Shown here one piece after another: positions 13,948 to 31,311 of a stretch of 64,000 bases of DNA. This DNA comes from Sandaracinaceae bacterium (GTDB lineage: Bacteria > Myxococcota_A > Polyangia > Polyangiales > Sandaracinaceae): the NCBI GenBank assembly GCA_019694315.1, contig JAIBCE010000005.1, positions 3,487 to 67,486 of the forward strand. The letters run 5' to 3'. Positions within the stretch are counted from its first letter, which is position 1. Every line of letters starts with the position of its first letter. Both the position numbers and the translations under genes were made by a program. A model generated the notes under the pieces. It was not told the DNA's origin and did not search any database. It saw nothing but the letters and a program-made list of their open reading frames with translations.

Positions 13948-14062
13948 GCTACACCTCCGCGCCGTGAGCGAGACGAAGCAGCACCACGCGGCCGCGGAGC
14001 GTGACGCCGAGGCGGATCCGGATCGCGAGCGCGCGAGCCTGCCGACCGGCACCTACACCGGC

Positions 14063-15439
14063 ATGGACGTCGCCGACCTCGCGACCATCGATCTCGAGGA
14101 GCGCGGCCACGGCGATGCGCGCGTCGCCGCCACGCTGCGGCTCATCGACGAGGCCTCGCGACCGCGCCCCTTGCCCGAGGTGCTCGCCGCCATCTGCGCG
14201 GAGATCTCCGCGATCCTCCACGCCGACGTCGTGAGCCTCTATCTCCGCGAGCGCGGCGAGGACGGCCGCGAGGATCTCCGCATGGCCGCCAACGTCGGCT
14301 TCCCCGCAGGAGCGGTGAGCCACGTGCGCCTCCGTGTGGGCGAGGGCATCACGGGCTTCGTGGCGGAGTCGCTCCGGCCCGCGTCGGTCGTGCTCGCGCC
14401 CGAGCACAATCGCTACAAGCACTTCCCCGAGCTGCGTGAAGAGCGCTTCCCGATCTTCCTCGCGGTGCCGCTGCTCGTGGGCCATCGCGCCGAGGGCGTG
14501 GTCGTGCTCCAGCGTGCGCGCGATGCGTTCGGCGACGACGAGATCCTCCTCGCCACCGCGCTCACGACGACCTTCGTGCTCGCGATCGAGCGCGCCGAGG
14601 ATCACCGCACCGACGTGACCCCCGCCGAGGAGCCGCAGGCCGCGCGCCTCGAGGGCGTTCCGCTCGCGCCGGGCCGCGCGATGGGCCGCGTCGAGACGCT
14701 GCCCACCTTCGAAGGCCTCGCGGCGATCGAGCGCGCGAACGAGGGCAACGTCGCCGACGACACCAGCCCCGACGCGATCACGCGTCGACGCGAGCGCATC
14801 ACGCTGGCGCTCGACGGGCTCGTCAAGGACCTCGCCTCGGTGCGCAAGCGCCTCGGCCCGCAGCTCCCCACCGAGGCCGCGGCCGGGCTCGAGACGCTCG
14901 CGCTGCTCGAGACGGACGGACGCCTCCGCGAGGCGCTCCTCGACGAGGGCGCCAAGCAGAACGTGGCCCTCGGCATCCGGAAGGTCGCGCGCGACTACGT
15001 GCAGGCGGTCTACAAGGCCAAGCGCTCGATGCCGCCCACGGCCACGAGCGCCGCCGACACACGGGCGTGGCTCGTCGAGCGCAGCGCGGAGATCGAGGAG
15101 CTCTGTCTCGTGCTCGCCGCGCGCCTCGTGGGCGATCGCGCCCCAACGGGCGGCTCGGTGCTGCTCGTGCCCGATCGGCTCACGGCGATGATGGCGCTCG
15201 CCGCCGCAGGCCAGCGCACGGCCGCGATCGCGATCTGCCATGAGGTCGATCTCGTGCGCGCAGGCCTCGGCGTCGCCGTCGCGCGCGCCGCGCAGATCCC
15301 CACGGTGGGCGACGTGGGCGGCCTCTTCGCGTGGGCGCGTCGCGGCGACACGGTGCTCGTGGACGGCGACGCGGGCGTGGTGCGCGTGCACCCCTCGCCT
15401 GCGCAGATCGCCCAATTCCGCTCGGGATCGCGGGCATGA
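14063..15439 (+). CDS. GAF domain protein resembling the N-terminal two-thirds of PtsP (EI-Ntr), without the PEP-binding barrel
   Basis: ATG at 14063 (alternative in-frame GTG at 13964). GAF-like region (LPEVLAAICAEISAILHADVVSLYL...GEGITGFV...). Helical linker, then a mobile-domain-like C-terminus (LLVPDRLTAMMALAAAG...IPTVGDV...VLVDGDAGVVRVHP) with no obvious GG.TSH phospho-His motif. Confidence 0.5.
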   Translation: MDVADLATIDLEERGHGDARVAATLRLIDEASRPRPLPEVLAAICAEISAILHADVVSLYLRERGEDGREDLRMAANVGFPAGAVSHVRLRVGEGITGFVAESLRPASVVLAPEHNRYKHFPELREERFPIFLAVPLLVGHRAEGVVVLQRARDAFGDDEILLATALTTTFVLAIERAEDHRTDVTPAEEPQAARLEGVPLAPGRAMGRVETLPTFEGLAAIERANEGNVADDTSPDAITRRRERITLALDGLVKDLASVRKRLGPQLPTEAAAGLETLALLETDGRLREALLDEGAKQNVALGIRKVARDYVQAVYKAKRSMPPTATSAADTRAWLVERSAEIEELCLVLAARLVGDRAPTGGSVLLVPDRLTAMMALAAAGQRTAAIAICHEVDLVRAGLGVAVARAAQIPTVGDVGGLFAWARRGDTVLVDGDAGVVRVHPSPAQIAQFRSGSRA

Positions 15440-16506
15440 GCTACGGCCTCGTCCTCGTCCTCGCGCTGGCGCTCTTCGTGGTCGCGTCGATCGCGCACTA
15501 CGTGTTCTGGACGCGCCGTCTCGAGCGTCCGATGACCTACGCGCTGAGCGAGCGCCTCGAGACGCCCGACGGCGCCGCGATCGAGCTCCATCGCCTGCCG
15601 GGCGATGCGCCGACGAGCCCCATCCCCGTGCTGCTCGTGCACGGCGTGGGAATCGATCACCGCAACAACGACATGCTCCCCGAGGTCTCGCTCGCGCGTC
15701 ACCTGCGCGCGAGCGGCCGCGACGTGTGGCTCCTGCGCCTGCGGAGCGGCGGGATGTCGCGTGTGTTCAAGGACAAGAGGAAGGTGCGCTTCGCGCGCAT
15801 GGCCGAGCACGATCTGCCGCTCGGCGTGCGCGAGGTGCTCACGCGCACGGGCCAGCCGCACCTCGACTACGTGGGCTTCTCGATGGGCGGCATGCTCGCG
15901 TACGCCGCGATCGGCGCGCATCGCATCGATCCCGCGCTCCTTCGTCGCGTGGTGATCATCGGCTCGCCCGCGCGCGTGGGGCACTACGTGCCGTTCCGAC
16001 ATCTGCTCACGCGCCTGCCCGAGCCGCTCGTGCCCACGCTGCCGCTGCGTCTCGGCTCGCGCATGGTCGCGTTCGCGTCGGAGTGGATGACGACGCCCGT
16101 GCATCACCTCGTCTACAACCCGCGCAACGTGGAGCGCGGCCTCGCGGGCCCCGCGATGATGACGGTGGAGGACATCCCCGGTCCTCTCAACGTCGACTTC
16201 CTGAGCTTCATCCGCCGCGGCATCGTGCACTTCGAGGATCGCGACGTGATCGAAGGTCTCCGTCACGTGTCGATCCCGGTGCTCTTCTTCGCGGGCGAGC
16301 GTGACCGTCTCGCGCCGCCCGAGGCCGTGCGTGTGGCCTTCGACGCGTGGGGCGCCGACGCCGGCGAGGTCGACAAGCGCTTCGTGCTCCTCTCGGTGAA
16401 GGAGGGCGCGAGCGCCGACTACGGCCACGGCGATCTCGCGATCGGCCGCGCTGCCAAGCGCGACATCTTCGAGCCCATCGAGCGCTTCCTCACGCCCGCG
16501 GCGTAG
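15436..16506 (+). CDS. alpha/beta hydrolase with N-terminal membrane anchor
   Basis: The ATG at 15436 overlaps the upstream stop (ATGA). N-terminal TM (LVLVLALALFVVASIA). HG oxyanion region LLVHGVG. Nucleophile elbow GFSMGG. Confidence 0.7.
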   Translation: MSYGLVLVLALALFVVASIAHYVFWTRRLERPMTYALSERLETPDGAAIELHRLPGDAPTSPIPVLLVHGVGIDHRNNDMLPEVSLARHLRASGRDVWLLRLRSGGMSRVFKDKRKVRFARMAEHDLPLGVREVLTRTGQPHLDYVGFSMGGMLAYAAIGAHRIDPALLRRVVIIGSPARVGHYVPFRHLLTRLPEPLVPTLPLRLGSRMVAFASEWMTTPVHHLVYNPRNVERGLAGPAMMTVEDIPGPLNVDFLSFIRRGIVHFEDRDVIEGLRHVSIPVLFFAGERDRLAPPEAVRVAFDAWGADAGEVDKRFVLLSVKEGASADYGHGDLAIGRAAKRDIFEPIERFLTPAA

Positions 16507-16576
16507 CCGCACGCGCACGTCGCCTCCTGCGAGGTGACAGACAACCTCGCCCGCTCACTGTTACCCTCGCGGCGTC

Positions 16577-19500
16577 TTGGGGACGTCGTCGACCAACTTC
16601 GGCTTCCTGGTGGAGCACCACCCGCGCCTCGTGATGTTGGGGTCACAGGCCGAGCTGCTGTTCCACGTCGACCCGCCCGCCTCGATCACGAAGGTCCGCC
16701 TCCTCGCCGAGGACCTCGCGCAGCTCGCTGCCGCGCGCGCCGGCCTCTTCGTCGATCGCCGCGAAGCCCAGGTGGATCTGCTTCGGCGCCTCCGCGACAA
16801 AGGCCTCGTCACCGCGGACGTCCACGACGCCTTCCACGCGATCCGGAAGGCCGGCAACGCCGCCGCGCACGACAACGCCGGCACGAGCGGTGAGGCCCTC
16901 TCGCAGCTCCGCCTCGCGTTCGTGGTGTCGGTCTGGTTCCACCGCACGTTCTCGAAAGATCGGCTCACCTTCAAGCAGCCCGCGTTCGTCGTGCCGCGCC
17001 CGCCCGAGGACGCCGCCGCGCGTCTGCGCGCCGAGCTCTCCGCGCTGAAGAACGCGCTCGCCGTCGCGAACGCCACCGTCACCGCCACCAAGCAGACGGC
17101 CGAGCAGGCCAAGGCCGCGCGCGAGGCCCTCGAGGAGCAGCTCCGCGCGGAGCTCGACGACGCGAAGAAGAAGGCGCTCGAGGCCGACGAAGCGCGCCTC
17201 GCGGCGGAGGCCAAGGCCCAGCTCGAAGAGTCCGAGCGCCTCGCGGCGATGGCCCTCCTCGACGAGGTCGCCGCGCGCGAGGCCGCGCTCGCTGCGGATC
17301 TCGCGAAGCTCCAGGTCGCGAGCCTCGCGGCGCCCGAGCTCACCGCCGCCTTCGTCACCGCGGCCAACGACGTCACGGCCACCCTCGATCTCGACGAGGC
17401 CACCACACGCCGCCTCGTCGACGAGAAGCTCCGCGAGGCAGGCTGGGAGGTCGACAGCCAGACGCTTCGTCACGCCCTCGGCGCTCGCCCGCAGAAGGGC
17501 CGATACCTCGCGATCGCCGAGTGGCCCACGGAGAGCGGCCCTGCCGACTACGTGCTCTTCGCGGGCCTCGTGCCCCTGGCCATCGTCGAGGCCAAGCGCA
17601 GCAAGAAGAACGTGCCCGCCGTGCTCCAGCAGGCCGCGCGCTACGCGAAGGATCTGCTCGAGCTCGAGGGCCTGGACATCCCTCGCGCGGCCGACGGCGA
17701 GCCGGGCTTCCCCGAGGCCAGCCCGCCGCAGACCTCGGCGAAGAAGGCCAAGGCCGAGCACGGTCGCTTCCTCGTCCCGTTCCTCTTCGCGACGAACGGC
17801 CGGGCCTATCTGGCGCAGATCAAGGAGGCGAGCGGCATCTGGTTCCGCGACGCGCGCCGGCCCGAGAACCTCGCGCGCGCGCTCGATGGCTGGCACTCGC
17901 CGCAAGGGCTCCTCGGACTCCTGGGCCAGGACATCGCCGCCGCGAACGAGAAGCTCGAGCGCGAAGAGACTGACTATCTCGGCCTCAGGCCCTATCAGGT
18001 GCGGGCCATTCGCGCGGCCGAAGCTGCCATTGCCGAGGGCGCGCAGACAGCGCTCCTCGCGATGGCCACCGGCACGGGCAAGACGCGCACGTGCATCGGG
18101 CTCTGCTATCGCCTGCTCAAGACGGGCCGCTTCCGCCGCATCCTCTTCCTCGCGGACCGCACGGCCCTCACCACGCAGACGGAGGACGCCTTCCAGGAGG
18201 CGCGCCTCGAGCAACTGACCACCTTCGCGCAGAGCTACCAGGTCAAAGGGCCCAAGACACCCGAGGTCTCCGTCGGCGACACGAAGCTGCACATCGCCAC
18301 GGTGCAGAGCCTCGTCCGCGGGCTCTTGTACGGGCCCGACGACACGCCACCTCCGCCCGTCGACACCTACGACTGCATCGTCGTCGACGAGTGCCACCGC
18401 GGCTACACGCTCGATCGCGAGCTGTCCGAGGGGGAGCTGCTCTTCCGCGACGAGTCGGACTACCTCTCGAAGTACCGGCGGGTGCTCGAGCACTTCGACG
18501 CCGTGAAGATCGCGCTCACGGCCACGCCGGCCCTCCACACGCGGCAGATCTTCGGCGACCCGGTCTACACGTACTCGTACCGAGAGGCGGTGATCGACGG
18601 CTTCCTCGTCGATCACAGCCCGCCCACGCGCATCGTCACCGCGCTCGCGGAGGACGGCATCACGTTCAAGACGGGCGAGAAGGTCCCCGTCTACCAGCCG
18701 CGCACGCAGACGCAGCAGCTCGCGCTCCTGCCGGACGAGATCCAGCTCGAGATCGATCAGTTCCACCGCAAGGTGATCACGCGCCCGTTCAACGAGGCCG
18801 TGGCGCACGAGCTCGCCAAGCACATCGACCCGAGCCTGCCGGGCAAGACGCTCGTCTTCTGCGTGAACGATCTCCACGCGGACATGGTCGTGGACTGTCT
18901 CAAGCAGGCGTTCGTCGCGCGGTACGGCAGTGTGGAAGACGGCGCCGTCGAGAAGATCACGGGCTCGGTCGACCGCCCGCTCGAGGCCATCCGTCGCTAC
19001 CGCACGGACCGCCGGCCCTGCGTGGCCGTCACGGTGGATCTGCTGACGACCGGCGTGGACGTGCCCGAGATCGACAAGCTGGTGTTCCTGCGCCGGGTGC
19101 GGAGCCGCATCCTCTACGAGCAGATGCTCGGGCGCGCGACGCGCCTCTGTCCGGACCTGCACGGCGCGGGTCGGCCCAAGGAGGTCTTCCAGATCTTCGA
19201 CGCGGTCGATCTCTACGCGGCCCTCGCGAACGCGACGGATATGAAGCCGGTGGTCGTGGATCCGTCGCTGCGCTTCAAGGACCTGGTCGAGGATCTGAAG
19301 AGGCTGAAGGACGCCGCTCACATCGAGCACGTGCTCGGCGAGCTGGTGACGAAGCTCGCCCGCAAGGTGCGTCGTCTCGATGCGCGCATCGCCGAGCGTC
19401 TCGCGGACGAGCTCGGCCAGAGCCCCGAGGACCTGGTCCGCACGCTGCGGAGCGCGAGCCCCACCGACGCCCGAAAGCTCTGGCTGGATCACCACCCACA

Positions 19501-20128
19501 CCTCGCGGATCTGCTCGACGCGCGCCCCGCCGGCGACGGCATCGACGGTCTCTACGTCTCGCACCACGCCGACGAGGTGCGCCGCGTGGAGCAGGGCTAC
19601 GGGCCGGGGCGTCAGCGTCCGGAGGACTACCTGGATGGCTTCGCGAAGTACGTGCGCGAGCACCTGAACGACCTGCCCGCCCTGGTGGTGGTGACGCAGC
19701 GCCCCAAGGACCTGACGCGCGCGCAGCTGAAGGAGCTGCGATTGGCGCTCGACAAGGCCGGCTATCCCGAGTCCCACCTCCGCGCGGCCTGGGCGCAGCG
19801 CACGAACCAGGACATCGCCGCAAGCATCCTCGGCCACATCCGCCAGGCCGCCCTCGGCGACCCGCTCATCGACTACGACGAGCGCGTGAACCGAGCCCTC
19901 AAGAAGATCCTCGCCTCCCGCCCCTGGGACCCCACCCAGAAGAAGTGGCTCGAGCGCCTCGCCAAGCAGCTCCAGAAGGAGATCGTGGTCGACCGCGAGT
20001 CCCTCGACGCCGAAGGCAGCCTGTTCGCGGCGGAGGGCGGGTCGAAGAGGCTCGAGAAGGTGTTCGAGGGCCGGCTCGGAGAGGTTCTGTCGAATCTCAG
20101 CGAAGCCGCCTGGAGGGAGGGAGCATGA
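16577..20128 (+). CDS. hsdR: type I restriction enzyme R subunit (DUF4145-like N-terminus, coiled coil, nuclease, SF2 helicase, EcoEI_R_C-like tail)
   Basis: TTG start as in the track. N-terminal SNFGFL... module, an A/E/K-rich coiled coil, and a PD-(D/E)xK-like segment (DYVLF...IVEAKRS). Helicase motif I MATGTGKT and motif II VVDECHRG. hsdM/hsdS lie downstream. Confidence 0.85.
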   Translation: MGTSSTNFGFLVEHHPRLVMLGSQAELLFHVDPPASITKVRLLAEDLAQLAAARAGLFVDRREAQVDLLRRLRDKGLVTADVHDAFHAIRKAGNAAAHDNAGTSGEALSQLRLAFVVSVWFHRTFSKDRLTFKQPAFVVPRPPEDAAARLRAELSALKNALAVANATVTATKQTAEQAKAAREALEEQLRAELDDAKKKALEADEARLAAEAKAQLEESERLAAMALLDEVAAREAALAADLAKLQVASLAAPELTAAFVTAANDVTATLDLDEATTRRLVDEKLREAGWEVDSQTLRHALGARPQKGRYLAIAEWPTESGPADYVLFAGLVPLAIVEAKRSKKNVPAVLQQAARYAKDLLELEGLDIPRAADGEPGFPEASPPQTSAKKAKAEHGRFLVPFLFATNGRAYLAQIKEASGIWFRDARRPENLARALDGWHSPQGLLGLLGQDIAAANEKLEREETDYLGLRPYQVRAIRAAEAAIAEGAQTALLAMATGTGKTRTCIGLCYRLLKTGRFRRILFLADRTALTTQTEDAFQEARLEQLTTFAQSYQVKGPKTPEVSVGDTKLHIATVQSLVRGLLYGPDDTPPPPVDTYDCIVVDECHRGYTLDRELSEGELLFRDESDYLSKYRRVLEHFDAVKIALTATPALHTRQIFGDPVYTYSYREAVIDGFLVDHSPPTRIVTALAEDGITFKTGEKVPVYQPRTQTQQLALLPDEIQLEIDQFHRKVITRPFNEAVAHELAKHIDPSLPGKTLVFCVNDLHADMVVDCLKQAFVARYGSVEDGAVEKITGSVDRPLEAIRRYRTDRRPCVAVTVDLLTTGVDVPEIDKLVFLRRVRSRILYEQMLGRATRLCPDLHGAGRPKEVFQIFDAVDLYAALANATDMKPVVVDPSLRFKDLVEDLKRLKDAAHIEHVLGELVTKLARKVRRLDARIAERLADELGQSPEDLVRTLRSASPTDARKLWLDHHPHLADLLDARPAGDGIDGLYVSHHADEVRRVEQGYGPGRQRPEDYLDGFAKYVREHLNDLPALVVVTQRPKDLTRAQLKELRLALDKAGYPESHLRAAWAQRTNQDIAASILGHIRQAALGDPLIDYDERVNRALKKILASRPWDPTQKKWLERLAKQLQKEIVVDRESLDAEGSLFAAEGGSKRLEKVFEGRLGEVLSNLSEAAWREGA
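19861..20070 (+). repeat. direct repeat copy 1 (hsdR 3' end)
   Basis: 210 nt, nearly identical (about 7 mismatches by eye) to 21872-22081. Confidence 0.9.
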
Positions 20129-20150
20129 GCAGGGACGAGGTCGGGGCACG

Positions 20151-21176
20151 ATGACGACACCCACAACGTGGATGGTTCGGGCGGGTCGAGGCGGAGATCA
20201 GGTCGACGCCTTCCTGGCAGATGGCGTCGTCGGCATCGGGTACGGCGCGTCCGAGTTCAAGGGGCTGCCGCCGACACTCACGCGCGAGGCGATCGTGGCC
20301 GGAATGAAGGCTGCAAATCCCCACTGGTCCACGGCCAAGCTCGCCGTGATCTCGGGGCAACTCGTGCGCTTCGTGACGGAGATCAAGGCCGGGGACCGCA
20401 TCGTCACGGGCGACCCCGAGACGCGCACGTACTTCGTCGGTCGTGCCAGCGGGGAGCTCCGCTGGGAGGGTGGCAAGCCGCTGCCGATTCGGCGAGGCGT
20501 GAAGTGGACCGGGCGCGTGGCACGCGACGCCCTCAGCGTCTCCACGCTCAACACACTCGGCGCGATTCAGACCCTCTTCCGCATCTCCGACGAGGTCGCG
20601 GACGAGCTGGTCAAGTTCGAGCGCCCCATCACCGAAGAAGCTCCGCCACCTGCGCCCAAGGCTGAGCAGACGGCTCCCGCCGATGTCGTCCCGGCCGACC
20701 TGCTCGGCGCGCCGGAGCGGGCCAAGAGCTTCATCGACGACATGATCAACCGACTGGACTGGGACGAGCTCCAGGACCTCGTCGCAGGCGTGCTCCGGGC
20801 GATGGGCTACAAGACACGCGTGTCCACGCCCGGTCCGGATCGGGGAGTCGACATCTTCGCGTCACCCGACGGCCTCGGTCTGCAGGAGCCGCGCATCTTC
20901 GTCGAGGTGAAGCACCGCCAGGCCGCGATGGGAGCCCCCGACCTCCGCACGTTCCTTGGCGGTCGCAAGGCCGGCGACAAGTGTCTCTACGTGAGCACGG
21001 GCGGCTTCAAGAAGGACGCGCACTACGAGGCCGACCGATCGACGATTCCGATCACGCTGGTGACTCTTCCCGTGCTGCGAGACCTCCTCCTGGAGCACTA
21101 CGAGCGATTGGACGAGGAGACGAGAGCGCTCGTTCCTCTTCGGCGTGTTTACCTACCCTTCGATCCCAACGACTGA
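20151..21176 (+). CDS. Mrr-like restriction endonuclease (PD-(D/E)xK C-terminal domain, PUA/EVE-like N-terminal domain tentative)
   Basis: ATG at 20151. C-terminal Mrr_cat-like pattern: LQDLVAGVLRAMGY, GVDIFAS, IFVEVKH, YVSTGGF. The N-terminal WMVRAGRGG...GIGYG...AGDRIV pattern is common in restriction-endonuclease-annotated proteins. Confidence 0.7.
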   Translation: MTTPTTWMVRAGRGGDQVDAFLADGVVGIGYGASEFKGLPPTLTREAIVAGMKAANPHWSTAKLAVISGQLVRFVTEIKAGDRIVTGDPETRTYFVGRASGELRWEGGKPLPIRRGVKWTGRVARDALSVSTLNTLGAIQTLFRISDEVADELVKFERPITEEAPPPAPKAEQTAPADVVPADLLGAPERAKSFIDDMINRLDWDELQDLVAGVLRAMGYKTRVSTPGPDRGVDIFASPDGLGLQEPRIFVEVKHRQAAMGAPDLRTFLGGRKAGDKCLYVSTGGFKKDAHYEADRSTIPITLVTLPVLRDLLLEHYERLDEETRALVPLRRVYLPFDPND

Positions 21177-21198
21177 ACCACGCACAGGAGATCCACCG

Positions 21199-21840
21199 AT
21201 GTCAGGGGGCACGAACAAGGCGACTGCGAAGAAGCCCCGCGCACGCAAGCGCGGCAAGGGCATCTTCTGCCTCGAAGGGGATTGGTGGAACGACCTCAAC
21301 CAATCCGGCAGCGTGAAGCCCATGCTGGACCTGATCTCCGCCGGGGCAGACATCGCGGTTCCGTCGGTCCACCGCGACGTCGCGACGCGCGATGAGCTCG
21401 AGTTCTACCTGCGGAAGTGGGTCCAGGGTCGCTACAAGACGTATCCCCTCCTGTGTCTCGCGTTCCACGGCAGCGAAGGCGCGCTTCACCTCAGCGACGG
21501 GCGAAAGGCTGAGTCGACCGTCACGCTCGACGAGCTCGCCGAGCTCCTCGACGGGAAGTGCCACGGCCGCATCATCCACTTCGACGGTTGCTCCACGGTG
21601 GTCGGCGACGTTCGCCACCTCAAACGCTTCCTGCGCCAGACGGGCGCCCTGGCGGTCACCGGATTCACGAACGACGTGCCCTGGCTCGACGCCGCGGCCT
21701 TCGACATCCTGCTCTTTGCGACCTTCCAGCAGCAGGCCCTCACGCGCGGAGGGATGAAGGCAGTGAAGCGTCGCGTGTTCACGGAGCTCCGCGGCATGGC
21801 CAGAGAGCTCGGCTTCCGGATGGAGATCCGGCCCGAATGA
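21199..21840 (+). CDS. small (213 aa) protein with minimal CHAT/caspase-like His-Cys signature (tentative)
   Basis: ATG at 21199 with AGGAG 9 nt upstream. LLCLAFHGSEG (His90-Gly) and RIIHFDGCST (Cys131) lie 41 residues apart after hydrophobic strands. The following GALAVTGFTNDVPWLDAAAFDILLF resembles the CHAT C-terminal motif. Confidence 0.45.
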   Translation: MSGGTNKATAKKPRARKRGKGIFCLEGDWWNDLNQSGSVKPMLDLISAGADIAVPSVHRDVATRDELEFYLRKWVQGRYKTYPLLCLAFHGSEGALHLSDGRKAESTVTLDELAELLDGKCHGRIIHFDGCSTVVGDVRHLKRFLRQTGALAVTGFTNDVPWLDAAAFDILLFATFQQQALTRGGMKAVKRRVFTELRGMARELGFRMEIRPE

Positions 21841-22151
21841 ACCGCACGAGCAAACTGGCCGCCCTGGGGCACCCGCTCATCGACTACGACGAGCGCGTGA
21901 ACCGAGCCCTCGGGAAGATCCTCGCCTCCCGCCCCTGGGACCCCACCCAGAAGAAGTGGCTCGAGCGCCTCGCCAAGCAGCTCCAGAAGGAGATCGTGGT
22001 CGACCGCGAGTCCCTGGACGCCGAGGGGAGCCTGTTCGCGGCGGAGGGCGGGTCGAAGAGACTCGAGAAGGTGTCCGAGGGTCGACTTGACGAGGTACTG
22101 TCCGACCTCACCGGCAATGTCTGGCGGGCGGCGGAAGGAGCAGAAGCATGA
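21837..22151 (+). pseudogene. duplicated HsdR C-terminal (EcoEI_R_C-like) fragment; intact 104-aa ORF that could still be expressed
   Basis: The ATG at 21837 overlaps the upstream stop (ATGA). The translation (PLIDYDERVNRALGKILASRPWDPTQKKWLERLAKQLQKEIVVDRESLDAEGSLFAAEGGSKRLEKV...) is almost identical to the last ~90 aa of HsdR. Confidence 0.65.
21872..22081 (+). repeat. direct repeat copy 2 (hsdR 3' end)
   Basis: 210 nt, nearly identical to 19861-20070, offset 2011 nt. Confidence 0.9.
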
Positions 22152-22280
22152 TGCTTCACCGCGCGCTCACCGTGCAAAGGACAGGCCGATGACCAAGACA
22201 CAGAGCCACGTTGCCCTCGGCCACATTCTCGTCGTCGCCCCCCAGAGGGTCTCAGCCCCAGCGACGAGTACCTCGAGGCC

Positions 22281-23099
22281 ATGGCCTACGACCTCGTTGG
22301 CGCGGAACGCCCAAACGCGCTCGCGGAGCTCTTGAGGCACGCCGAGGGCTACTATCCGGTACTGCGGGAACTCCGCCGTATCGCGGCCCCGGGCAAACCA
22401 ATGTTCAAGGGAATCGACGTCGCGAGTGCCCGGGCGATCATTGTCGACGTCTTGCGCGCGCTCCTGGCGCGAGACGTGAGGGCCGTCGCCCCCAGCGCGC
22501 AGGTGCTCCTGTCCACGGATCCTCTCCTTGAGCAACTGAGCTGTGTTGATGGCACCTTCATTGCTGGAACGGCCTACGGCGCCCACCCTCTCAACCCCAC
22601 GACCTTCATTCCGCTGTCGGCCTTCCACACCTACCTTCTCGCGGAGAAGCGTGGCGAGTTCATGGCAATAGTGTCGGCTCTCGGGGCATCTGAACTGGCC
22701 CTCTCGGATGCCCAGTCGTCGAGGGAGCGATCCGGCGCGGACGCAGGCCTCCGCGAGCTGACGGGCCAAGCTCAGCTCGGTGTCAAGGCCGGACAGGGTT
22801 CGGGCAGCGCCGCAGCGTTTGACCTCTCCGCGCACTTCGGCCCTCCGCGGGGACCCATCGGGGTGCCGGACGGCATGCGTTGGGTTCGGCGGGAACCGAT
22901 GTGGCAGCGCATGATCGACGAGAGGCTCCAGCGAAACATCTTGTCTCTCGAGGTGGAGTTCACGTACGCGTCGGACTTCTCAATCAACGCTTCGCTCGCC
23001 GCGGTGCTCGAAGAAGTCGGCATCGGACTCGGGGGCACGTTCGAAGCAAGCGAAACGCTTCGCCAGACCTACCGCGTCGTCTTCCACGAGCGCACGTGA
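22281..23099 (+). CDS. hypothetical protein, 272 aa, no family recognised
   Basis: ATG at 22281 with GAGG 3 nt upstream. The frame shows coding-like third-position GC bias, but with more A/T-ending codons than the flanking core genes. Helical N-terminal half, Gly/Ser-rich linker, beta-like C-terminal half (SLEVEFTYASDFSINASL...). Confidence 0.6.
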   Translation: MAYDLVGAERPNALAELLRHAEGYYPVLRELRRIAAPGKPMFKGIDVASARAIIVDVLRALLARDVRAVAPSAQVLLSTDPLLEQLSCVDGTFIAGTAYGAHPLNPTTFIPLSAFHTYLLAEKRGEFMAIVSALGASELALSDAQSSRERSGADAGLRELTGQAQLGVKAGQGSGSAAAFDLSAHFGPPRGPIGVPDGMRWVRREPMWQRMIDERLQRNILSLEVEFTYASDFSINASLAAVLEEVGIGLGGTFEASETLRQTYRVVFHERT

Positions 23100-23218
23100 G
23101 CATCGCGAGCTCTCGGCACGAGACGCGCTTCGTGCGATCGTCTCGGCCTCGCATCACCAGACGCCAGCACACCGTTTGTGATCGTCGGTGCTCGTGTGAC
23201 GCGCCCCCGCCAGAGGCA

Positions 23219-23239
23219 GCCCGTCCAAGCCGGACGGGC
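23219..23239 (+). terminator. stem-loop downstream of the 272-aa gene
   Basis: GCCCGTCC-AAGCC-GGACGGGC: 8-bp GC stem with a 5-nt loop, 120 nt after the stop. No U tract. Confidence 0.35.
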
Positions 23240-23582
23240 GGACGACCGGGATCGACCGCCACGCCGTTGGGCTCGCGAAGGGGTCGCGACGCGCGACGGC
23301 GCAGGCGATCGACACCGTGATGACGGCGACCTACTTCGAGGTGGGGCCGTCGGATCGTCGAGGATGGGCAGCGGGGGGCCGAACGTGCGGGCTACGGGAC
23401 GCTGCTCCTCGGTCTGCGAGCGGGGAACCCACCGGGTCTGGGACTTCGTCGTTTCGTCGTTGCCCGCGAGGTAGCTCGCCGTGCGATCGTCGGGGGACCG
23501 AGTGAGCACGCAATTCCACACCATCGGTCGCAGTCTCGTGTTGCTCGAGATCGGCACGCCGCTTCGCGCGCTCGATCAAGGC

Positions 23583-24365
23583 ATGAGCAAGCCCATCCTC
23601 TTCGAGCTCGAGGGACCGGACGGGCCTGCGCATTGGGTCGTCAAGCCTCGGAGTCTCGATCGGCGTGGCGGTGACGGTCTCGTGTGCGAGGTCGCCGCTG
23701 CGGACATCGCCGTCGCCTTGGGTCTCCGGGTTCCAGCGATGGGGATGCTGGAGTTCCCGAGCGTGCCGCTCGAGGTCGAGACCTCCGAGCTCGGCCATCG
23801 GGTCGCGGAGGTCTACCGACGAGACGCGGGCGGGACAGCGTTCTGCTCGCGCTTCATCGAGGGCGGCGTCCACGCGGTGAGAGGGATGTTCGACGACCTC
23901 CGCTCTGTGCCGCTCGAGATGCAGGAGGATGCCGTCCGACTCTTCGCCCTCGACGTGTTGCTCCGACACTACGATCGAAGACCCGGCAATCCGAACCTGC
24001 TCGTCCACGAGGATCGCCTCGTGGTCATCGACCACGGGCACGCGTTCCACGGCATCGAGCAGGTGACGGAAGAGGGGCTCTCGAAGTTCGCTGACACCGA
24101 CCAAGACCAGGCCGCGCTCGCCGACCACGTCTGCGCGTCGGTGGCGGCCCGCGATCGCTACGAACACGTGTTCGACGACGTCCTCGCCCGTGTTCGTGCC
24201 CTCGACGACACGACGCTCGACCGCCTCGCGTCGGCCTGGCCGGACGCGTTGGATCGCTCGCCTGACGGCACCCCCTCGGGTATGCGATCGTCCGTCGTCG
24301 CTGCCCTGCGAGCCAGGCGCGACGCGTTCCCGTCCCTCTTGAGGTCTGTCCGTGCCGCCCTCTAA
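23583..24365 (+). CDS. HipA-like / PI3-4-kinase-fold protein kinase
   Basis: ATG at 23583. Catalytic-loop-like LLRHYDRRPGNPNLLV and metal-binding-like VVIDHGHAF, as in the HipA_C family. Confidence 0.55.
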   Translation: MSKPILFELEGPDGPAHWVVKPRSLDRRGGDGLVCEVAAADIAVALGLRVPAMGMLEFPSVPLEVETSELGHRVAEVYRRDAGGTAFCSRFIEGGVHAVRGMFDDLRSVPLEMQEDAVRLFALDVLLRHYDRRPGNPNLLVHEDRLVVIDHGHAFHGIEQVTEEGLSKFADTDQDQAALADHVCASVAARDRYEHVFDDVLARVRALDDTTLDRLASAWPDALDRSPDGTPSGMRSSVVAALRARRDAFPSLLRSVRAAL

Positions 24366-25179
24366 AGCCGAATACCGGATCTTCTCCGCGAGCGCCGACC
24401 CCCTCGGGGAGGAGCGCTACCCGCTGGCGTTGGTCCACTGGGACGGGACGGAGCTCCGGTATGCGGCGCGTGATCGTGTGCCCAGCGCTCTGGAGAAGGA
24501 GGAGCGTGCGCTCGCTCGTGTTCTTCGCGCGATGCGTCGCCGTGTACGCGAGCTCCCGGCGACGCAGCTCGACATGGGCCTCGACACGATCTTCGACGTC
24601 CGCGCCGGTGATGGCGGGGCGACGGCGTGGTCGACGAAGCGGATCGCGATGACGCGTGACGCTGCGGATCACTTCTCGCGGCTCGTCTCGGACCTGCACC
24701 TCGCACAGCTCCGCGACGCGGCTTCGTCCATCGGGCGCGCCGAGGTGGTCGACGCGGTGCACACCCTCGGGACGCTGTTGGCGAAGACGCACCGGAACGT
24801 TCACCCCGATCACACGGTGCACGAGTTCGATCAGCTGCGATCGCCCATGTCCTGGCTCAACGGCTCCTGGGTGCACACGGTGCCCCTCGTCGTGTCGTCG
24901 ACCGTGGGCGCTCACGAGGCGGTCAGGAAGGTGGCGGCGACTCTCGAGCTCGCCGTGCCCCGCAAGCATCGCCTCGTCGTCGCGTACCCGACGCCGGCGG
25001 ACGACTCGGTCGGACGCGAGCTGCTGCGCGGCGTGGCTCATCTCGCGACGAACAATCCGCCGGAGGACGGCGACACGGCTCGCGTTCGGGGGGTCGCGCT
25101 TCCGCTCACGGCGGACGACGAGATCGACACGTCCGCGCTGCAGACGCTCGTGCTCGCCGAGCTTCGCACCGCGCCCTGA
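24352..25179 (+). CDS. DUF3037-like protein (tentative), partner of the HipA-like kinase
   Basis: The GTG at 24352 overlaps the kinase gene by 14 nt. The N-terminal YRIFSASADPLGEERYPLALVHWDG resembles the DUF3037 N-terminal pattern. Assigned from memory of the family and its known pairing with HipA-like kinases. Confidence 0.4.
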   Translation: MPPSKAEYRIFSASADPLGEERYPLALVHWDGTELRYAARDRVPSALEKEERALARVLRAMRRRVRELPATQLDMGLDTIFDVRAGDGGATAWSTKRIAMTRDAADHFSRLVSDLHLAQLRDAASSIGRAEVVDAVHTLGTLLAKTHRNVHPDHTVHEFDQLRSPMSWLNGSWVHTVPLVVSSTVGAHEAVRKVAATLELAVPRKHRLVVAYPTPADDSVGRELLRGVAHLATNNPPEDGDTARVRGVALPLTADDEIDTSALQTLVLAELRTAP

Positions 25180-25249
25180 TTCGTCGCCGTCCGCGGGTCG
25201 ATCTTCGCGCCGCGAAGCGTGGGGTTCGTGCGATCGTCCGGGCCGTCCG

Positions 25250-26698
25250 ATGACCACCACCAACGACATCGTTCAGAAGCTCTGGTCGCTCTGTCACGTC
25301 CTTCGGGACGATGGGATCACGTACCACCAGTACGTGACGGAGCTGACGTGGCTGCTCTTCCTCAAGATGGCCAAGGAGACGAACCGGGAGGAGCAGCTGC
25401 CCAAGGGGTATCGGTGGGATGACCTGACGCAGCTCGATGGGGTGCCGCTCCTCACGTTCTACCGGCAGCTCCTCCTGCACCTCGGCACGGCGTCGGGGCC
25501 GAAGGGGCCGTCGAAGCGGGTGCAGGCGATCTTCTCGAACGCGGCGACCTCCATGAAGGAGCCGCGGAACCTCAAGAAGCTCGTCACCGACATCGACGCC
25601 CTCGACTGGTACTCCGCCAAGAGCGAGGGCCTGGGCGACCTCTACGAAGGCCTGCTCGAGAAGAACGCGAGCGAGAAGAAGTCCGGCGCGGGGCAGTACT
25701 TCACGCCGCGGCCACTCATCGACGCGATGGTCGAGGTCGTCCAGCCGCAGCCCAAGGAGCGCGTCGAGGACCCGGCCGCGGGCACCGCGGGCTTCCTCAT
25801 CGCCGCGGACCGCTACATCAAGGCGCACTCGAACGACCTCTTCGATCTCGACGAGGCCACGGCGCGCTTCCAGCGGCAGAAAGCGTTCTACGGCGTCGAG
25901 CTCGTGCCCGACACGCACCGCCTCGCGCTCATGAACCTGCTCCTCCACGGCATCGACAGCGACCTCGAGCTCGGCGACGCGCTCTCGAACCTCGGCAAGG
26001 ACCTGCCCAAGGCGAACGTCATCCTCACGAACCCGCCCTTCGGCACCAAGAAGGGCGGAGGCCTGCCCACGCGCGATGACTTCACCTTCCCCACGAGCAA
26101 CAAGCAGCTCGCCTTCCTCCAGCACATCTACCGCGGCCTCGAGCCCGGCGGCCGCGCGGCGGTGGTGCTGCCCGACAACGTGCTCTTCGAGGAGAACGTT
26201 GGGACGAAGATCCGCGAGGACCTGATGGAGAAGTGCGATCTCCACACCATCCTCCGCCTGCCCACCGGCATCTTCTACGCGCAGGGCGTGAAGACGAACG
26301 TGCTCTTCTTCACGCGCGGCGAGCACGGCAAGGATCGCGGCCAGACCAAGGCCGTGTGGGTCTACGACATGCGCGCGAACATGCCGAGCTTCGGCAAGCG
26401 CACACCGCTGGGCCCCGAGCACTTCGAGCCGTTCATCAAGGCCTTCGGCAAGAACCCGTACGGCCAGAGCAAGCGCAAGGACGAGGGCGAGGAGGGCCGC
26501 TTCCGGAAGTTCACGCGCGACGAGATCAGGAAGCGCGGCGACAACCTCGACATCAGCTGGCTCAAAGACGAGAACGCGACCTCGCACGACGACCTCGGCG
26601 AGCCCGAGGAGATCGCCACCGAGATCATGACGAAGCTCCAGCTCGCCATGGACGAGATCGAGTCCCTCCAACGAGTGCTACGGGGGGAGGAGTCGTGA
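25250..26698 (+). CDS. hsdM: type I R-M N6-adenine DNA methyltransferase subunit
   Basis: ATG at 25250. HsdM_N-like IVQKLWSLCHVLRDDGI. SAM motif DPAAGTAGFL. Catalytic NPPFG. Confidence 0.9.
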   Translation: MTTTNDIVQKLWSLCHVLRDDGITYHQYVTELTWLLFLKMAKETNREEQLPKGYRWDDLTQLDGVPLLTFYRQLLLHLGTASGPKGPSKRVQAIFSNAATSMKEPRNLKKLVTDIDALDWYSAKSEGLGDLYEGLLEKNASEKKSGAGQYFTPRPLIDAMVEVVQPQPKERVEDPAAGTAGFLIAADRYIKAHSNDLFDLDEATARFQRQKAFYGVELVPDTHRLALMNLLLHGIDSDLELGDALSNLGKDLPKANVILTNPPFGTKKGGGLPTRDDFTFPTSNKQLAFLQHIYRGLEPGGRAAVVLPDNVLFEENVGTKIREDLMEKCDLHTILRLPTGIFYAQGVKTNVLFFTRGEHGKDRGQTKAVWVYDMRANMPSFGKRTPLGPEHFEPFIKAFGKNPYGQSKRKDEGEEGRFRKFTRDEIRKRGDNLDISWLKDENATSHDDLGEPEEIATEIMTKLQLAMDEIESLQRVLRGEES

Positions 26699-28387
26699 GC
26701 GACAGCTTCGAACTGCAGCACCACCCACTGAACATCGACTCCCCCCCAGAGGGGTGGCACGTGATGGCCATTCGCGCGGTGCTCACCGAGGCCCAACCCG
26801 GCTACGCGTCGGGGGGAGCATGGCCGAGACTCGTCAGGCCTCATTCACTTGCGTCCGATGAACGTGACCACGGACGGGGAGATCGATCTAACGGACGTTC
26901 GAAGCGTTGAGGCCACTGGGGACCAGCGCCGGATCGGACCTGGGGAGATCCTCTTCAACAACACCAACAGCCCTGCCCTCGTCGGCAAGACGGCGCTTGT
27001 TCGGAGCGGCCCCCTCCGGGCGTTCTCGAATCACATGACCCGGCTGGTTACGAGTCCGGACGTCGCGCCGGGCTTCTTGGCCTATCAGCTTCAGCACTTG
27101 TTCAAGTCGGGCTACTTTCGGCAGTTGTGCAAGAAGCACGTGAATCAGGCGAGCATCGCTACCACCACCCTCTTGGACTCCGTCCCCGTTCTGGTCCCCG
27201 ACAGGCCGGAACAGGATCGCATCGTCGCCAAGCTCGACGCGCTGCGGGCACGCAGTCGTGGCGCGAGGGAGGCGCTCGACGCGGTGCCCGCGCTGCTCGA
27301 CCGGCTGCGTCAGTCCATCCTCGCCGCCGCGTTCCGAGGCGACCTCACGGCCGACTGGCGCGAAGCGAACCCCGACGTCGAGCCCGCGTCCGAGCTCCTG
27401 AAGCGCATCCGCATCGAGCGCCGCAAGCGCTGGGAGGAGGCCGAGCTCGCGAAGATGGTCGCCAAGGGCAAGCCCCCCAAGGACGACCGCTGGAAGTCGA
27501 AGTACGTCGAGCCCGAGCCCGTCGACGAGAGCGACCTGCCGGAGTTGCCCGAGGGCTGGTGCTGGGCGAGCGTCGAGGGAGTGTGTGACCTGCAGCTTGG
27601 GCAGCAGCGTTCCCCAGAGCACGCTGCAGCCGAAGTGACTCTTCCCTACGTGCGCGCCGCGAACATCACCTGGACCGGGCTGGACCTCTCCGACGTGAAG
27701 GAGATGGGCTTCCCGGATCCCGAACGCTATCGTCTACGCGTCGGCGATGTCCTGCTCAGTGAGGCGTCCGGGAGCGCTACGGAAGTAGGAAAGCCAGCGA
27801 TCTGGCGCGGCGAGATCCCCAATTGCTGCTACCAGAAGACGCTTCTGCGTGCTCGACCGTTCGAATCCACGATGGGGAGTGAATGGCTCCATCTGTGTTT
27901 CCTCGCTGACGCCATCCTCGGGCGATTTGCAGCGATGGCTCCAGGAGTCGGCATCCTGCATCTCACAGCTGACCGAATGAGCTCGTGGCCAGTTCCGATG
28001 GCGCCGGTCGACGAGCAGACACGCCTCGTCGAAAGCGTCCGAAGCGCTTTGGCTACTGTGGCCGCGTTGGAAGAGACCGCCGCCAACCTCGGGGCGTCGA
28101 CCGCGGCTCTTGACGCGTCGGCGCTCGCGAAGGCCTTCCGCGGCGAGCTGCTGAGTCCGCTATCGCGCGAAGAGGAGGCGTACTCGCTCGGGGGCGCGGA
28201 CGAGGCCGAGGTCCTTGCGTTCGTCCGTCGCGTCATCGAGGAGGACGGTGACATCGAAAGTGGGCTCGTCCACAGTCTCCACATGGTCGGGGCTGCTGGA
28301 GCGGATAAGGTCGAGGCCGAGCGGCGTCGGTTCTTCAAGGAGCGGGGGATGCGGGTTCCGCGGATGAAGGGCGGCGCACAGGAGTGA
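26695..28387 (+). pseudogene. hsdS: type I R-M specificity subunit, reading frame broken at a G6 tract (26811-26816)
   Basis: The GTG at 26695 overlaps the hsdM stop (GTGA). The N-terminal 39 codons (..PPEGWHVMAIRAVLTEAQPGYASG) continue in the -1 frame as EHGRDSSGLIHLRPMNVTTDGEIDL... if one G is removed. The rest is a typical two-TRD HsdS with a central coiled coil. Confidence 0.8.
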
Positions 28388-28414
28388 GATGCGGTGAGTC
28401 GAGGAGAATGGTGC

Positions 28415-29212
28415 TCACGAGCCCCGCTCCCCTCGCCAGCCGCATTGATCGCGCACCCCGCACCGGGTGCACCGGGGTTTCTCCTCCAGGCAGATGCCCT
28501 TCGCGAGCCCGAACTCCTCCGTCTCGACCTGACCGTACGCGACGAGCACCCGGTCCACGCGCCGCATGCTTGCGCCCGCCTCCGACGCCATGCGTTGTCC
28601 GATCTGGATGGCGCGGAAGTACCGGTTCGTGTCGTCCACGAGGCGCAGACGATGGAAGATCCGCATGATCACGCGGTCTGGTTTCAGCACGTTGAGACCC
28701 AGGTCCGTCATGAAGTGGTAGACCGTGATGCCGCCGAGGTACTCGAACTCCGCTTCGAGGTCCTCCTTGAGCACGAGCAGGTCCGAAAGCGCGCCGTCGC
28801 CGATGCGGTCGCGAAGGTATGCGGAGAACGACCCGCACCTCGTGACGATCGCGGCCACTGTCTTTGCGTTCGCGATGCAGGCCTCGACTTTCCGGCGATG
28901 CCCGATCATCGCCGAGTCGTCGACGATGCGGTCGACGTCTCCAGGTCCATACTCGCGGGCAACTCTCCAATCCCCCAGGTGTTTCAGGATGGTTTCTCGT
29001 TTTGCGGTGACCGTCGCGGCCTTGAAGCCGGAGTAGAAGACGACCATCACCAGCTTCTGGAACAACGCATCGTCCGAGTCGTCGAGCCCTGCCCGCCCAA
29101 CCTCTCGCTCGATAGTCGCCTCGATGTCGGGCTGGGACGTTCGGCACTCCTCGATCAGACTGCGCTCGATCGCACGAAAGATGTCGCCCACGTTCGTGTC
29201 CCTGGCCGTCAT
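28415..29212 (-). CDS. Tag-like (3-methyladenine DNA glycosylase I family) HhH glycosylase with C-terminal C-x6-C-x2-C-x5-C motif
   Basis: 265 aa. LFQKLVMVVFYSGFKAATVTAKRETI...IGHRRKVEACIANAK and YLGGITVYHFMTDLGL align by eye with E. coli Tag segments. The C-terminal CLEEKPRCTRCGVRDQC matches EndoIII/MutY Fe-S cluster spacing. Confidence 0.6.
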   Translation of the reverse strand: MTARDTNVGDIFRAIERSLIEECRTSQPDIEATIEREVGRAGLDDSDDALFQKLVMVVFYSGFKAATVTAKRETILKHLGDWRVAREYGPGDVDRIVDDSAMIGHRRKVEACIANAKTVAAIVTRCGSFSAYLRDRIGDGALSDLLVLKEDLEAEFEYLGGITVYHFMTDLGLNVLKPDRVIMRIFHRLRLVDDTNRYFRAIQIGQRMASEAGASMRRVDRVLVAYGQVETEEFGLAKGICLEEKPRCTRCGVRDQCGWRGERGS

Positions 29213-29428
29213 AGGTCGACTCTACGCGCGATCACCGTTTCGGCGCGACCTGAACGTGCGCCTCTGACCTCTGCCGCCGGCGTGCGGCGGATGCGATCGC
29301 CTCGGCGTGCATCGTCGCGGTGGCCGGGCCCTCACCCTAGCCCTCTCCCGCCTGCGGGAGAGAGGACTCTGCGGCGCGGCCACCGACGTCACGGTCTCTC
29401 TCCAAGCAGGATGATCTCCGAAGAGCGG

Positions 29429-29570
29429 GCAGCTGGCTGCTCTGCTGGTGGTCGTCGGACCGCTGGTGGGGCAACTGGCTGCTCTGCAGGGGGTCGCTCG
29501 ACCGTGACCTGGGGTAGCTGGCTGCTCGGGTGTGACGACGCGACACATGTGGCGGGCAGCTGGGCGATCT
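29429..29570. repeat. degenerate ~42-43 nt periodic repeat (3-4 copies) in a divergent promoter region
   Basis: GCAGCTGGCTGCTCTGCT (29429), GCAACTGGCTGCTCTGCA (29471), GTAGCTGGCTGCTCGGG (29514) and GGCAGCTGGGCG (29556). Confidence 0.5.
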
Positions 29571-29587
29571 CGAAGGAGCTCGTCGAG

Positions 29588-30193: not shown

Positions 30194-30776
30194 TCATGCA
30201 TCGCGACCCTCGATCCCTGAGTACAGCGCCCCGCGAGTTCGTGACCAGCTCCGGGCCGGCGGGGCGCTGGACTCGATTGGGAGGGGGCCCCGACGAATTC
30301 ACTTCGGCGGGGGAGGGTCTGGGACAGACCCTCGGCAAGAAACGGCGAAGTACCTTCCCCAGAAGGCCGGTCACAGACTTCTGGGAAACGGTACTGAGCA
30401 CGCACGAGAGGCTCGGACGTGGGCTCTGTCGGCGCAGGAGCCGGCGAGAGTGCGGACGAAGGACCCGAAGGAGGCGAAACGGTCGGCCGTGGTGACCCGT
30501 GAAGGGTCTCGACGCCGCGCAGACTCGAGCGAGGGCTCAGGTGCCCACCTCCTCACGCTCGTCCGTCGTCGGGGTGATCCCCCGACCCTCGCGCCACCCC
30601 CGTGCCGCGAGCGGAGAGGGGTCGAGAGCGTCGAGAGCCCCTCGCGAGAGGAGTGGGCGGGCGTGCGCGGGGCTCCCCTCGTGCCCGCCAGGGGAGACGG
30701 TCCGGCCGACCGCGAGGACCGTGTGCTCGGTGACGGTGCTCGGTGCCCCACGCGTCTCTGAGCATCGCGCCGCGAG

Positions 30777-31265: not shown

Positions 31266-31311
31266 GGTGTCTCCCAGGACCGAAAAGAACCGATTCCAGA
31301 GCTGTCGTCGA

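Follow-up and report, generated by a model that had tools for sequence, protein, structure and literature searches.

Orphaned 3′ fragments in rhs, contact-dependent inhibition of growth (CDI), and type VI secretion system (T6SS) effector loci have been proposed to arise by C-terminal displacement (Kirchberger 2017, PMC5361080, with Jackson 2009, Poole 2011, and Koskiniemi 2014 as the sources cited there). Long target duplication is also known to have accompanied the insertion of restriction or restriction-modification (R-M) genes (Nobusato et al. 2000; Furuta et al. 2010, PMC2853133), and defense genes are described as embedded in Type I R-M operons, as in PrrC-EcoprrI, rlo of C. jejuni, and TgvAB in V. 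cholerae VPI-2 (PMC11411939). The locus described here lies in a 64,000-nucleotide stretch of DNA (the window) from a Sandaracinaceae metagenome-assembled genome (MAG; assembly GCA_019694315.1, contig JAIBCE010000005.1). In this Type I R-M operon the 3′ end of hsdR, the gene for the restriction subunit, is present twice, and the two copies bracket a cassette of two genes, one encoding an Mrr-like nuclease and the other a protein of the DUF6642 family.

Based on comparison of sequences, the structure is probably a recombination scar in a Type I R-M operon in which embedded defense cassettes have a hotspot at the hsdR-hsdM junction, a reading to which we assign a probability of about 0.6. The original prediction, that the repeat is the scar of a cassette insertion or exchange within the hsdR tail, is supported, and everything testable fits it. 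The scar is of a type already known from other loci; its setting, the hsdR tail of a Type I operon, is new.

As in rhs displacement, the conserved gene body would have served as the homologous anchor, a new 3′ tip comes with new downstream genes, and the old 3′ end is moved downstream as a 5′-truncated orphan that is homologous to the main gene. There is likewise one homology-free junction, and the repeats permit later deletion or swapping by homologous recombination. In contrast to rhs, the tip in the window is a structural C-terminal domain of a restriction subunit and not a polymorphic toxin domain, the cargo is a defense cassette and not an immunity gene, and there is a single orphan and no array; the window locus, moreover, is known from sequence alone. 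The locus resembles insertions with long target duplication in having restriction-related genes between long direct repeats (tens to ~420 bp) that are closer to each other than to the empty site, with no integrase or transposase. Against the values used by Furuta et al. (a repeat >30 bp and an insert <20 kb lacking mobile-element genes), the window has a 287-nt repeat and a 2-kb insert with no such genes. The class also calls for a single-copy target in a related genome that shares both flanks; the closest relative, which lacks the cassette, has a single tail, but the genes downstream of it are not those of the window. In contrast to the published insertions, the target in the window belongs to an operon and is coding sequence, namely the 3′ end of a further restriction gene; the very different tips point to two alleles, and no strict empty site is available. 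The resemblance to embedded systems is that a Type IV-like (Mrr-family) nuclease cassette sits between hsd genes and shares their orientation and that the Mrr-like protein and a HipA_2-like neighbor match PDC-S02 and PDC-M66A, respectively. Both are PADLOC PDC candidates, a set that Payne et al. (2024, bioRxiv 10.1101/2024.01.29.577857) obtained through "guilt by embedding." The papers on embedding (PMC11411939; Payne et al. 2024) are concerned with what is embedded and not with its route of arrival, and the portions consulted contain no mention of gene-end duplications flanking embedded genes.

The duplicated hsdR tail

The hsdR gene (16577–20128, + strand) encodes a subunit of 1183 residues with the Pfam domains DUF4145, HSDR_N, ResIII/helicase, and EcoEI_R_C. 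It matches the NCBIfam equivalog PRK11448 with 1421 bits and PADLOC REase_I, and its G+C content at third codon positions (GC3) is 0.93. Assignment to Type I follows from the presence of HsdR (helicase and EcoEI_R_C domains), HsdM, and HsdS in one cluster, as read from the sequence. Copy A of the repeat is formed by the last 94 codons of the intact gene (19846–20128, +) and has a high-identity core at 19860–20070. It is followed by the gene for the Mrr-like nuclease (20151–21176, +; 341 residues), by that for the DUF6642 protein (21199–21840, +; 213 residues, preceded by the ribosome binding site AGGAGA), and by a junction or filler segment (21841–21856, +) that is homologous neither to hsdR nor to what follows DUF6642 in the two related loci that share the cassette. 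Copy B (21857–22151) is a 5′-truncated hsdR tail contained in an open reading frame of 104 codons, orf104 (21837–22151, +), which matches Pfam EcoEI_R_C at positions 75–160 and NCBIfam PRK11448 at positions 1033–1121 and has a GC3 of 0.87. The original prediction had described an intact 104-residue frame whose ATG overlaps the upstream stop codon as ATGA, and this reading is confirmed. Copies A and B bracket exactly two genes, Mrr_cat nuclease and then DUF6642, as had been proposed.

Precise alignment of 19861–20070 with 21872–22081 gives 203/210 identical positions (96.7%) at an offset of 2011 nt, in agreement with the ~97% and 2011 nt estimated earlier by eye. The ungapped homology extends over 287 nt (19846–20132 and 21857–22143) with 89% identity, and it is the sole direct repeat of ≥60 nt within window positions 14000–32000. 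The longest runs of exact identity are 41, 102, and 32 nt. The 5′ edge is sharp, at ~19846–19860, with three mismatches in 19846–19859 followed by the exact runs of 41 and 102 nt, and in the 3′ part identity drops to 62% across the final 55 nt. Homology of the tails stops at the two stop codons of the hsdR frame, 20126–20128 in copy A and 22149–22151 in copy B; copy B has an additional 6 nt (GAAGCA) ahead of its stop and terminates four codons later than copy A. Downstream, each tail continues into a different set of genes, copy A into the Mrr-like gene and copy B into orf272.

The interval between hsdR and hsdM in the window contains ~5 kb of extra genes, and all genes of the island are on the + strand with coding-like GC3. 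No tRNA, integrase, or transposase was identified in or near the cassette, no integrase or recombinase across the 16.5–29-kb island, and no terminal inverted repeats at the cassette ends among the reported repeat pairs. An Rfam scan gave no matches, and a scan for promoters and terminators was uninformative in DNA of this composition (the G+C content of the window is 70%).

Divergence between the copies is distributed unevenly, being 1.4% at 19860–20004, 7.6% at 20005–20070, and 38% at 20071–20125, and a max-chi-square analysis places a break at 20071 that 0/5000 permutations reach. Both tips keep the HsdR pattern EGRL-EVLS-L----W, with synonymous changes mixed with conservative ones. Neutral local decay would not give a tip with 38% divergence beside a core with 1–3%, suggesting that the tip of copy B most likely evolved inside the working hsdR of a different allele. 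The two tails therefore probably come from two hsdR alleles, and the earlier suggestion that the incoming DNA carried its own hsdR end fits tips that are divergent yet HsdR-like. The closest relative, L001 (loci other than the window are designated by L numbers), is from another Sandaracinaceae MAG and has an hsdR 85% identical to that in the window. Identity between the cores of A and B (96.7%) exceeds that of either copy to L001 (~90%). Copy A differs from L001 by 9.0, 10.6, and 51% over the same three segments; because both tips are ~50% diverged from L001, this relative does not tell which is native.

Related loci and the embedded cassette

An HsdR scan of species-representative genomes yielded 12 loci, and a metagenome scan with alignment of HsdR tails yielded 80 more; the distance from the hsdR tail to hsdM could be counted in the 65 loci that hold both. 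The gap is ≤50 nt in 25/65 loci, 50–300 nt in eight, 300–1000 nt in 16, and >1 kb in 16. In L003 and L006, hsdM directly follows hsdR. The remaining 40/65 loci have inserts of varied defense or toxin-antitoxin genes, among them recurrent Phd/YefM-PIN pairs, Fic, Abi_2, DUF4357, DUF488, NACHT-like, YhcG, and Uma2. The variety of these inserts indicates that the hsdR-hsdM junction is a hotspot for embedded defense and toxin-antitoxin cassettes, in agreement with what has been published on embedding in Type I R-M systems (PMC11411939; Payne et al. 2024).

L001 has one hsdR tail, no Mrr-like or DUF6642 gene, and different genes between hsdR and hsdM. The original prediction called for an empty site in related genomes. 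Loci with a single tail and no cassette are present (L001, and the 25/65 with hsdM within 50 nt), but a strict empty site, in which hsdR is followed by the sequence found after 22151, was not found in protein searches with orf104 and orf272. The search with the orf272 protein returned itself and one remote match (26% identity), with no close relatives.

Gene ends are duplicated around inserts in other members of the family. In L001, the hsdM 5′ end recurs as a 169-nt repeat (98% identity, spacing 1387) on either side of a YhcG/DUF1016 gene, with which the upstream copy forms an in-frame fusion. The hsdM 3′ end is repeated in L007, where 74-nt copies (88%) enclose a 90-residue open reading frame and Uma2 between hsdM and hsdS. 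In L059, a 119-nt fragment of the hsdR body (91%; positions 672–790 and 4323–4441) is duplicated within the hsdR-hsdM gap and overlaps the start of a 127-residue open reading frame. In the three clear cases, L001, L007, and the window, the gene body adjoins the intact end, and the orphan is at the far side of the insert. Gene-end duplication is thus present in at least three of ~40 insert-bearing loci; it is recurrent and not universal.

Two other candidates were rejected. L045 is a decayed locus, and the "second tail" of L082 is not a relic, being part of a whole second HsdR-like gene (1397–3988) between hsdR and hsdM. This gene encodes 863 residues with an N terminus that by eye is RecG-type/AlbA_2-HATPase-like, a helicase-like middle, and its own EcoEI_R_C tail, and the protein may be an alternative R subunit. 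A separate observation concerns L007, a cyanobacterial member of the family, in which REP-like repeats (6201–6378 and 10379–10678) and a gene (6299–6922) that by eye resembles a REP-associated tyrosine transposase lie beside a Phd/PIN pair.

The Mrr-like protein consists of an N-terminal domain without a family match, a Pro/Ala-rich linker, and an Mrr_cat domain (Pfam E 6e-22) in which the D...EVK motif is intact (GVDIF...FVEVKH) and the PD-(D/E)xK residues are kept. It matches PADLOC PDC-S02 over its full length (residues 1–336, E 4e-73), and searches of Pfam and of PDB sequences with the N-terminal domain gave no match. Its relatives occur in defense-type operons on plasmids. As a family, PDC-S02 has candidate status and stems from embedded genes (Payne et al. 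2024).

The second protein matches Pfam DUF6642 (E 2e-22). Members of this family are ~200 residues long and share a conserved GIFCLEGDWW motif and a His-Cys pair. In an alignment of the 38 detectable homologues, His90 is nearly invariant and Gly91 and Cys131 are invariant; in the AlphaFold2 (AF2) model, which has a predicted local distance difference test score (pLDDT) of 91.3, His90 and Cys131 come after strands 84–88 and 125–128. The top Foldseek matches in the PDB are SAVED-CHAT (8tl0), caspase-4, CED-3, and Craspase (E 2e-7 to 1e-5, TMq ~0.6), and the matches also include Craspase TPR-CHAT and DdvA. On this model, DUF6642 is a minimal caspase/CHAT-fold protein with a predicted role as a protease. 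The earlier description of the protein as CHAT-like therefore holds at the level of the fold but not as a match to the Pfam CHAT model (PF12770), since the window protein matches DUF6642 only. For one homologue, P0005, CHAT is among the precomputed Pfam domains and is flagged as "faint." A sequence-profile search of the PDB returned nothing relevant, no PADLOC model matched, viral contigs gave one distant match only, and the searched literature contained no mention of DUF6642.

The three closest contexts of DUF6642 (the window, L014, and L013) are all Type I loci. L014 has the order Mrr-DUF6642-hsdM with 7 nt between DUF6642 and hsdM and is 75% identical to the window at the nucleotide level; L013 has Mrr(partial)-DUF6642-NACHT-like-hsdM and is 83% identical. 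The pair that the original prediction proposed to seek elsewhere is accordingly present in two other contexts, upstream of hsdM in both, and the comparison indicates that Mrr-DUF6642 moves as a unit. In both loci, the homology shared with the window goes no further than the stop codon of DUF6642, and no hsdR-tail fragment follows. Nucleotides 1–21 of L014 (TGGTATCAACGCAGAGTAC) resemble what we take to be a SMART/template-switch oligonucleotide; if so, this contig would stem from cDNA, and Mrr, DUF6642, and hsdM would lie on one RNA in the sample sequenced. Of the more distant DUF6642 genes, that of L016 adjoins BREX and that of L015 lies in a region containing Wadjet, and others occur elsewhere with varied neighbors and no Mrr; among the family members examined (L015, L016, L017, L020, L023, and L111), one is on a plasmid, ~1.3 kb from an Abi-family gene. 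We infer that the cassette, as a putative protease-nuclease pair, would probably add a second, different layer of restriction or abortive defense to the Type I system; TgvAB (PMC11411939) and BrxU (Payne et al. 2024) play such a role for other systems.

Recombination model and alternatives

The favored model is that two related operons recombined, one of the L014 type, hsdR-Mrr-DUF6642-(hsdM), and the other with the order hsdR-orf272-...-hsdM. One end of the exchange would be ordinary homologous recombination in a conserved hsd gene, and the other a single illegitimate join at 21841–21856, with the base that follows the DUF6642 stop on one side and codon ~1090 of the second hsdR allele on the other. 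The product would consist of module 1 (hsdR through tail A, Mrr, and DUF6642) and module 2 (tail B and orf272 through hsdM). Such a process would be homology-facilitated illegitimate recombination (HFIR), following the logic of rhs C-terminal displacement and requiring no duplication in the resident. HFIR is reportedly the subject of work by de Vries and Wackernagel in 2002 and by Prudhomme in 2002. Either direction would give the same structure. The incoming DNA may have comprised an hsdR 3′ part with Mrr-DUF6642, anchored in hsdR and joined at its far end to codon ~1090 of the resident hsdR. Alternatively, a donor hsdR tail with the DNA from orf272 to hsdM may have been anchored in hsdM and joined at its near end after the DUF6642 gene of an L014-like resident. 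In both cases hsdR would remain intact with tail A, and the tail of the second allele would be displaced downstream as the 5′-truncated orphan now seen as orf104.

With the homology running out at the stop codons and separate genes continuing from each tail, concatenation of two modules is the simplest reading. The order hsdR (tail A), Mrr, DUF6642, and tail B is that of an intact gene, new genes, and a 5′-truncated orphan; there is one homology-free junction (21841–21856), and the flanks are the conserved genes hsdR and hsdM. Loci of one parental type are represented by L013 and L014, with Mrr-DUF6642-hsdM at 75–83% nucleotide identity, and no locus of the hsdR-orf272 type was found. Identity between the window and L001 is higher beside the variable region (91% versus 83% for the hsdR 3′ part and 96% versus 87% for the hsdM 5′ part); hsdM has other stretches of 95%, so the increase at the edges is only suggestive.

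Several observations weigh against this model. The sliding identity profile of hsdR against L001 has no clear step that would mark a recombination breakpoint. The unevenness of divergence between A and B is not significantly different from the A-versus-L001 profile (Fisher p = 0.21), and the HsdR tip is fast-evolving in general, which weakens a specific crossover near 20071 but not the derivation from two alleles, and no crossover is claimed at 20071. No parental arrangement was found at high identity, nor was a B-type tip followed by orf272, orf104 and orf272 both being without close relatives. The in-frame ATGA overlap at the start of orf104 is somewhat unlikely by chance (a rough estimate is a few percent) and leaves room for selection acting on the expression of this frame. 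Finally, the recombination pathway is not directly observable from sequence, unlike the anatomy, the distribution of the cassette among loci, and the signature of two alleles.

An unlikely alternative is insertion in situ with long target duplication, of the class described by Nobusato and Furuta, in which ~290 nt of the resident tail was duplicated and only one allele was involved. Restriction genes flanked by direct repeats of 46–423 bp in the absence of mobility genes are known for Types I–IV, an example being a Burkholderia gene of Type IV whose repeat is given as 384/412 (PMC2853133), and the closer similarity of the window repeats to each other (96.7%) than to L001 (~90%) is as in the published cases. 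Duplication of one tail should, however, lead to even divergence, whereas the tips differ by 38% and the core by 1–8%, and both tips are HsdR-like. Homology ending exactly at the stop codons is that of two gene-plus-neighbor modules, and no tail duplication accompanies the cassette in L013 or L014.

Integration of the Campbell type is also improbable. Here, a 2011-bp circle comprising an hsdR tail, Mrr, and DUF6642 would have entered by a single RecA crossover in the resident tail, and the flanking repeats would then permit excision and re-insertion, making this a RecA-dependent translocatable cassette. A single crossover of such a circle yields exactly the order of gene tail, cargo, and tail, with a unit length equal to the repeat spacing, and it explains equally the mirror-image cases at the hsdM 5′ end in L001 and the hsdM 3′ end in L007. 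There is, however, no sign of a circular form, L013 and L014 hold the cassette without repeats, and an earlier illegitimate event would still be required to make the junction at 21841–21856; with the available sequences this route is not distinguishable from recombination between two operons.

A different proposal, which we consider very unlikely, concerns copy B itself and holds that orf104 was kept because it is functional, as a translationally coupled free-standing EcoEI_R_C domain that would modulate assembly of the R-M complex or tether the Mrr/caspase-like module to it. The frame is intact, overlaps DUF6642 by ATGA, has the coding-like GC3 of 0.87, and is annotated as a gene by NCBI, and there is a precedent in PrrC-EcoprrI, an embedded effector controlled by the surrounding Type I enzyme (Payne et al.). 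The GC3 would, however, be inherited from hsdR, and the ATG arises where the ancestral last codon of DUF6642, GAA (shared by L013), meets the TGA stop. The ATGA start is therefore largely a by-product of a DUF6642 gene that ends in GAA-TGA. No stand-alone counterpart follows DUF6642 in L013 or L014, and a word-indexed protein search with orf104 returned only a match to itself. An exhaustive search gave family matches of ≤55% identity, many of them short proteins ending in an EcoEI_R_C domain; these are not readable as free-standing domains, since some gene calls in the library are cut off by the end of a contig. When the changes are polarized with L001, copy A has two synonymous changes only, whereas copy B has the derived replacements Asp to His, Lys to Gly, and Phe to Ser, the last at a residue that is invariant in eight family members. 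These three changes argue that copy B is a relic rather than a working domain, and orf104 is most likely a young, decaying relic, although the numbers are small.

Because the source is a MAG and repeats of ~290 nt are able to confuse short-read assemblers, a chimeric or falsely duplicated contig was considered, and Logan contigs from two other sequencing runs were used as an independent check. Three of these are 100% identical to the window: L026 (SRR26348422) covers 20928–22015, and L027 and L108 (both SRR1027651) cover 20889–21900 and 22031–25683, respectively. They cross the junctions from DUF6642 to copy B and from copy B to orf272, so that an outcome named beforehand as a possible refutation, absence of the duplication from independent assemblies, is countered for copy B. 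The last unique 31-mer before an exact-repeat run marks the end of L027, the first unique 31-mer after one marks the start of L108, and the end of L026 coincides with the end of the 102-nt exact run. Breaks at such boundaries are the pattern of a true repeat in de Bruijn assembly, as would be expected with both copies in the sample of L027 and L108. The junction from hsdR through copy A to Mrr was not recovered independently, in that an exact-protein look-up of the Mrr-like protein gave no record. With seven differences in the core, entirely different tips, and unique flanks for each copy, an assembly artifact is extremely unlikely. Target-site duplication by a transposon was rejected on the length of the repeat (287 nt), the absence of a transposase, and the lack of reported terminal inverted repeats, and integrase-mediated att duplication on the absence of an integrase or recombinase from the cassette and island.

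The surrounding island and implications

Downstream of copy B, the orphan gene orf272 (22281–23099, +; GC3 0.78) has no match in Pfam, PADLOC, or NCBIfam. It is followed by a remnant of a YhcG/DUF1016 nuclease gene (23285–23411, +) that is 84% identical to L001 17517–17642, inside the L001 YhcG gene. The segment 23285–23490 comprises this 127-nt remnant and then ~75 nt that in L013 are found just upstream of hsdM (3125–3199). Together with the YhcG-hsdM fusion of L001 (17174–18622), the remnant and the L013-like 75 nt are further scars, and the region is a mosaic. Next are genes for a HipA_2-like kinase (23481–24365, +; Pfam HipA_2, PADLOC PDC-M66A) and its 275-residue partner (24352–25179, +), which is 86% identical at the nucleotide level to L001 15173–16002. 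Beyond this pair are hsdM, for the methyltransferase subunit (25250–26698, +; Pfam N6_Mtase and HsdM_N), and hsdS, for the specificity subunit (26858–28387, +; a weak Pfam Methylase_S match and homology to the hsdS regions of L001, L003, and L006), both of which have gene calls in L024.

The HipA_2-like gene and its partner (23481–25179) are a further pair embedded among the R-M genes. L016 (5307–6975) contains a counterpart of like architecture, made up of a 296-residue HipA_2 and a 265-residue protein, ~1 kb upstream of DUF6642 and near BREX, and the partner alone is kept in L001, where it is located after a Sel1-repeat protein. Outside the island, ~4 kb downstream and just 3′ of a glycosyltransferase gene (31312–32529), the window contains a large tandem array (32498–34491) with periods of ~75, 166, and 470 nt, including ~10 copies of the 166-nt unit that are 87–100% identical.

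Taken alone, the repeat is an ordinary recombination scar. It would be more significant if displacement proves a general route, or if orf104 or Mrr-DUF6642 is functional. A tentative and rather doubtful extension is that gene-end repeats are working "handles" of a general, enzyme-free route by which cassettes are embedded in, and moved among, Type I operons. A cassette would travel with the adjacent end of an hsd gene and enter at that site, leaving the hsd gene intact and an orphan behind, and later excision or swapping would depend on RecA; the window (hsdR 3′), L001 (hsdM 5′), and L007 (hsdM 3′) would then be three snapshots of this route. In a bolder variant, orf104 would be expressed and would couple the Mrr/caspase-like module to the R-M complex.

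The analysis also flags DUF6642 as a recurrent resident of defense islands, here paired with an Mrr-type nuclease. Many defense systems occur embedded in R-M, BREX, and similar operons, a property that has been used for their discovery, and the route of embedding is not yet worked out. The window and two similar loci of the family appear to retain a legible footprint of a cassette that arrived with a replacement gene end and displaced the old one. The near-identical 210-nt repeats make the cassette precisely deletable by RecA with hsdR undamaged, and a one-ended recombination model would explain both the intact host operon and the clean loss of embedded genes.

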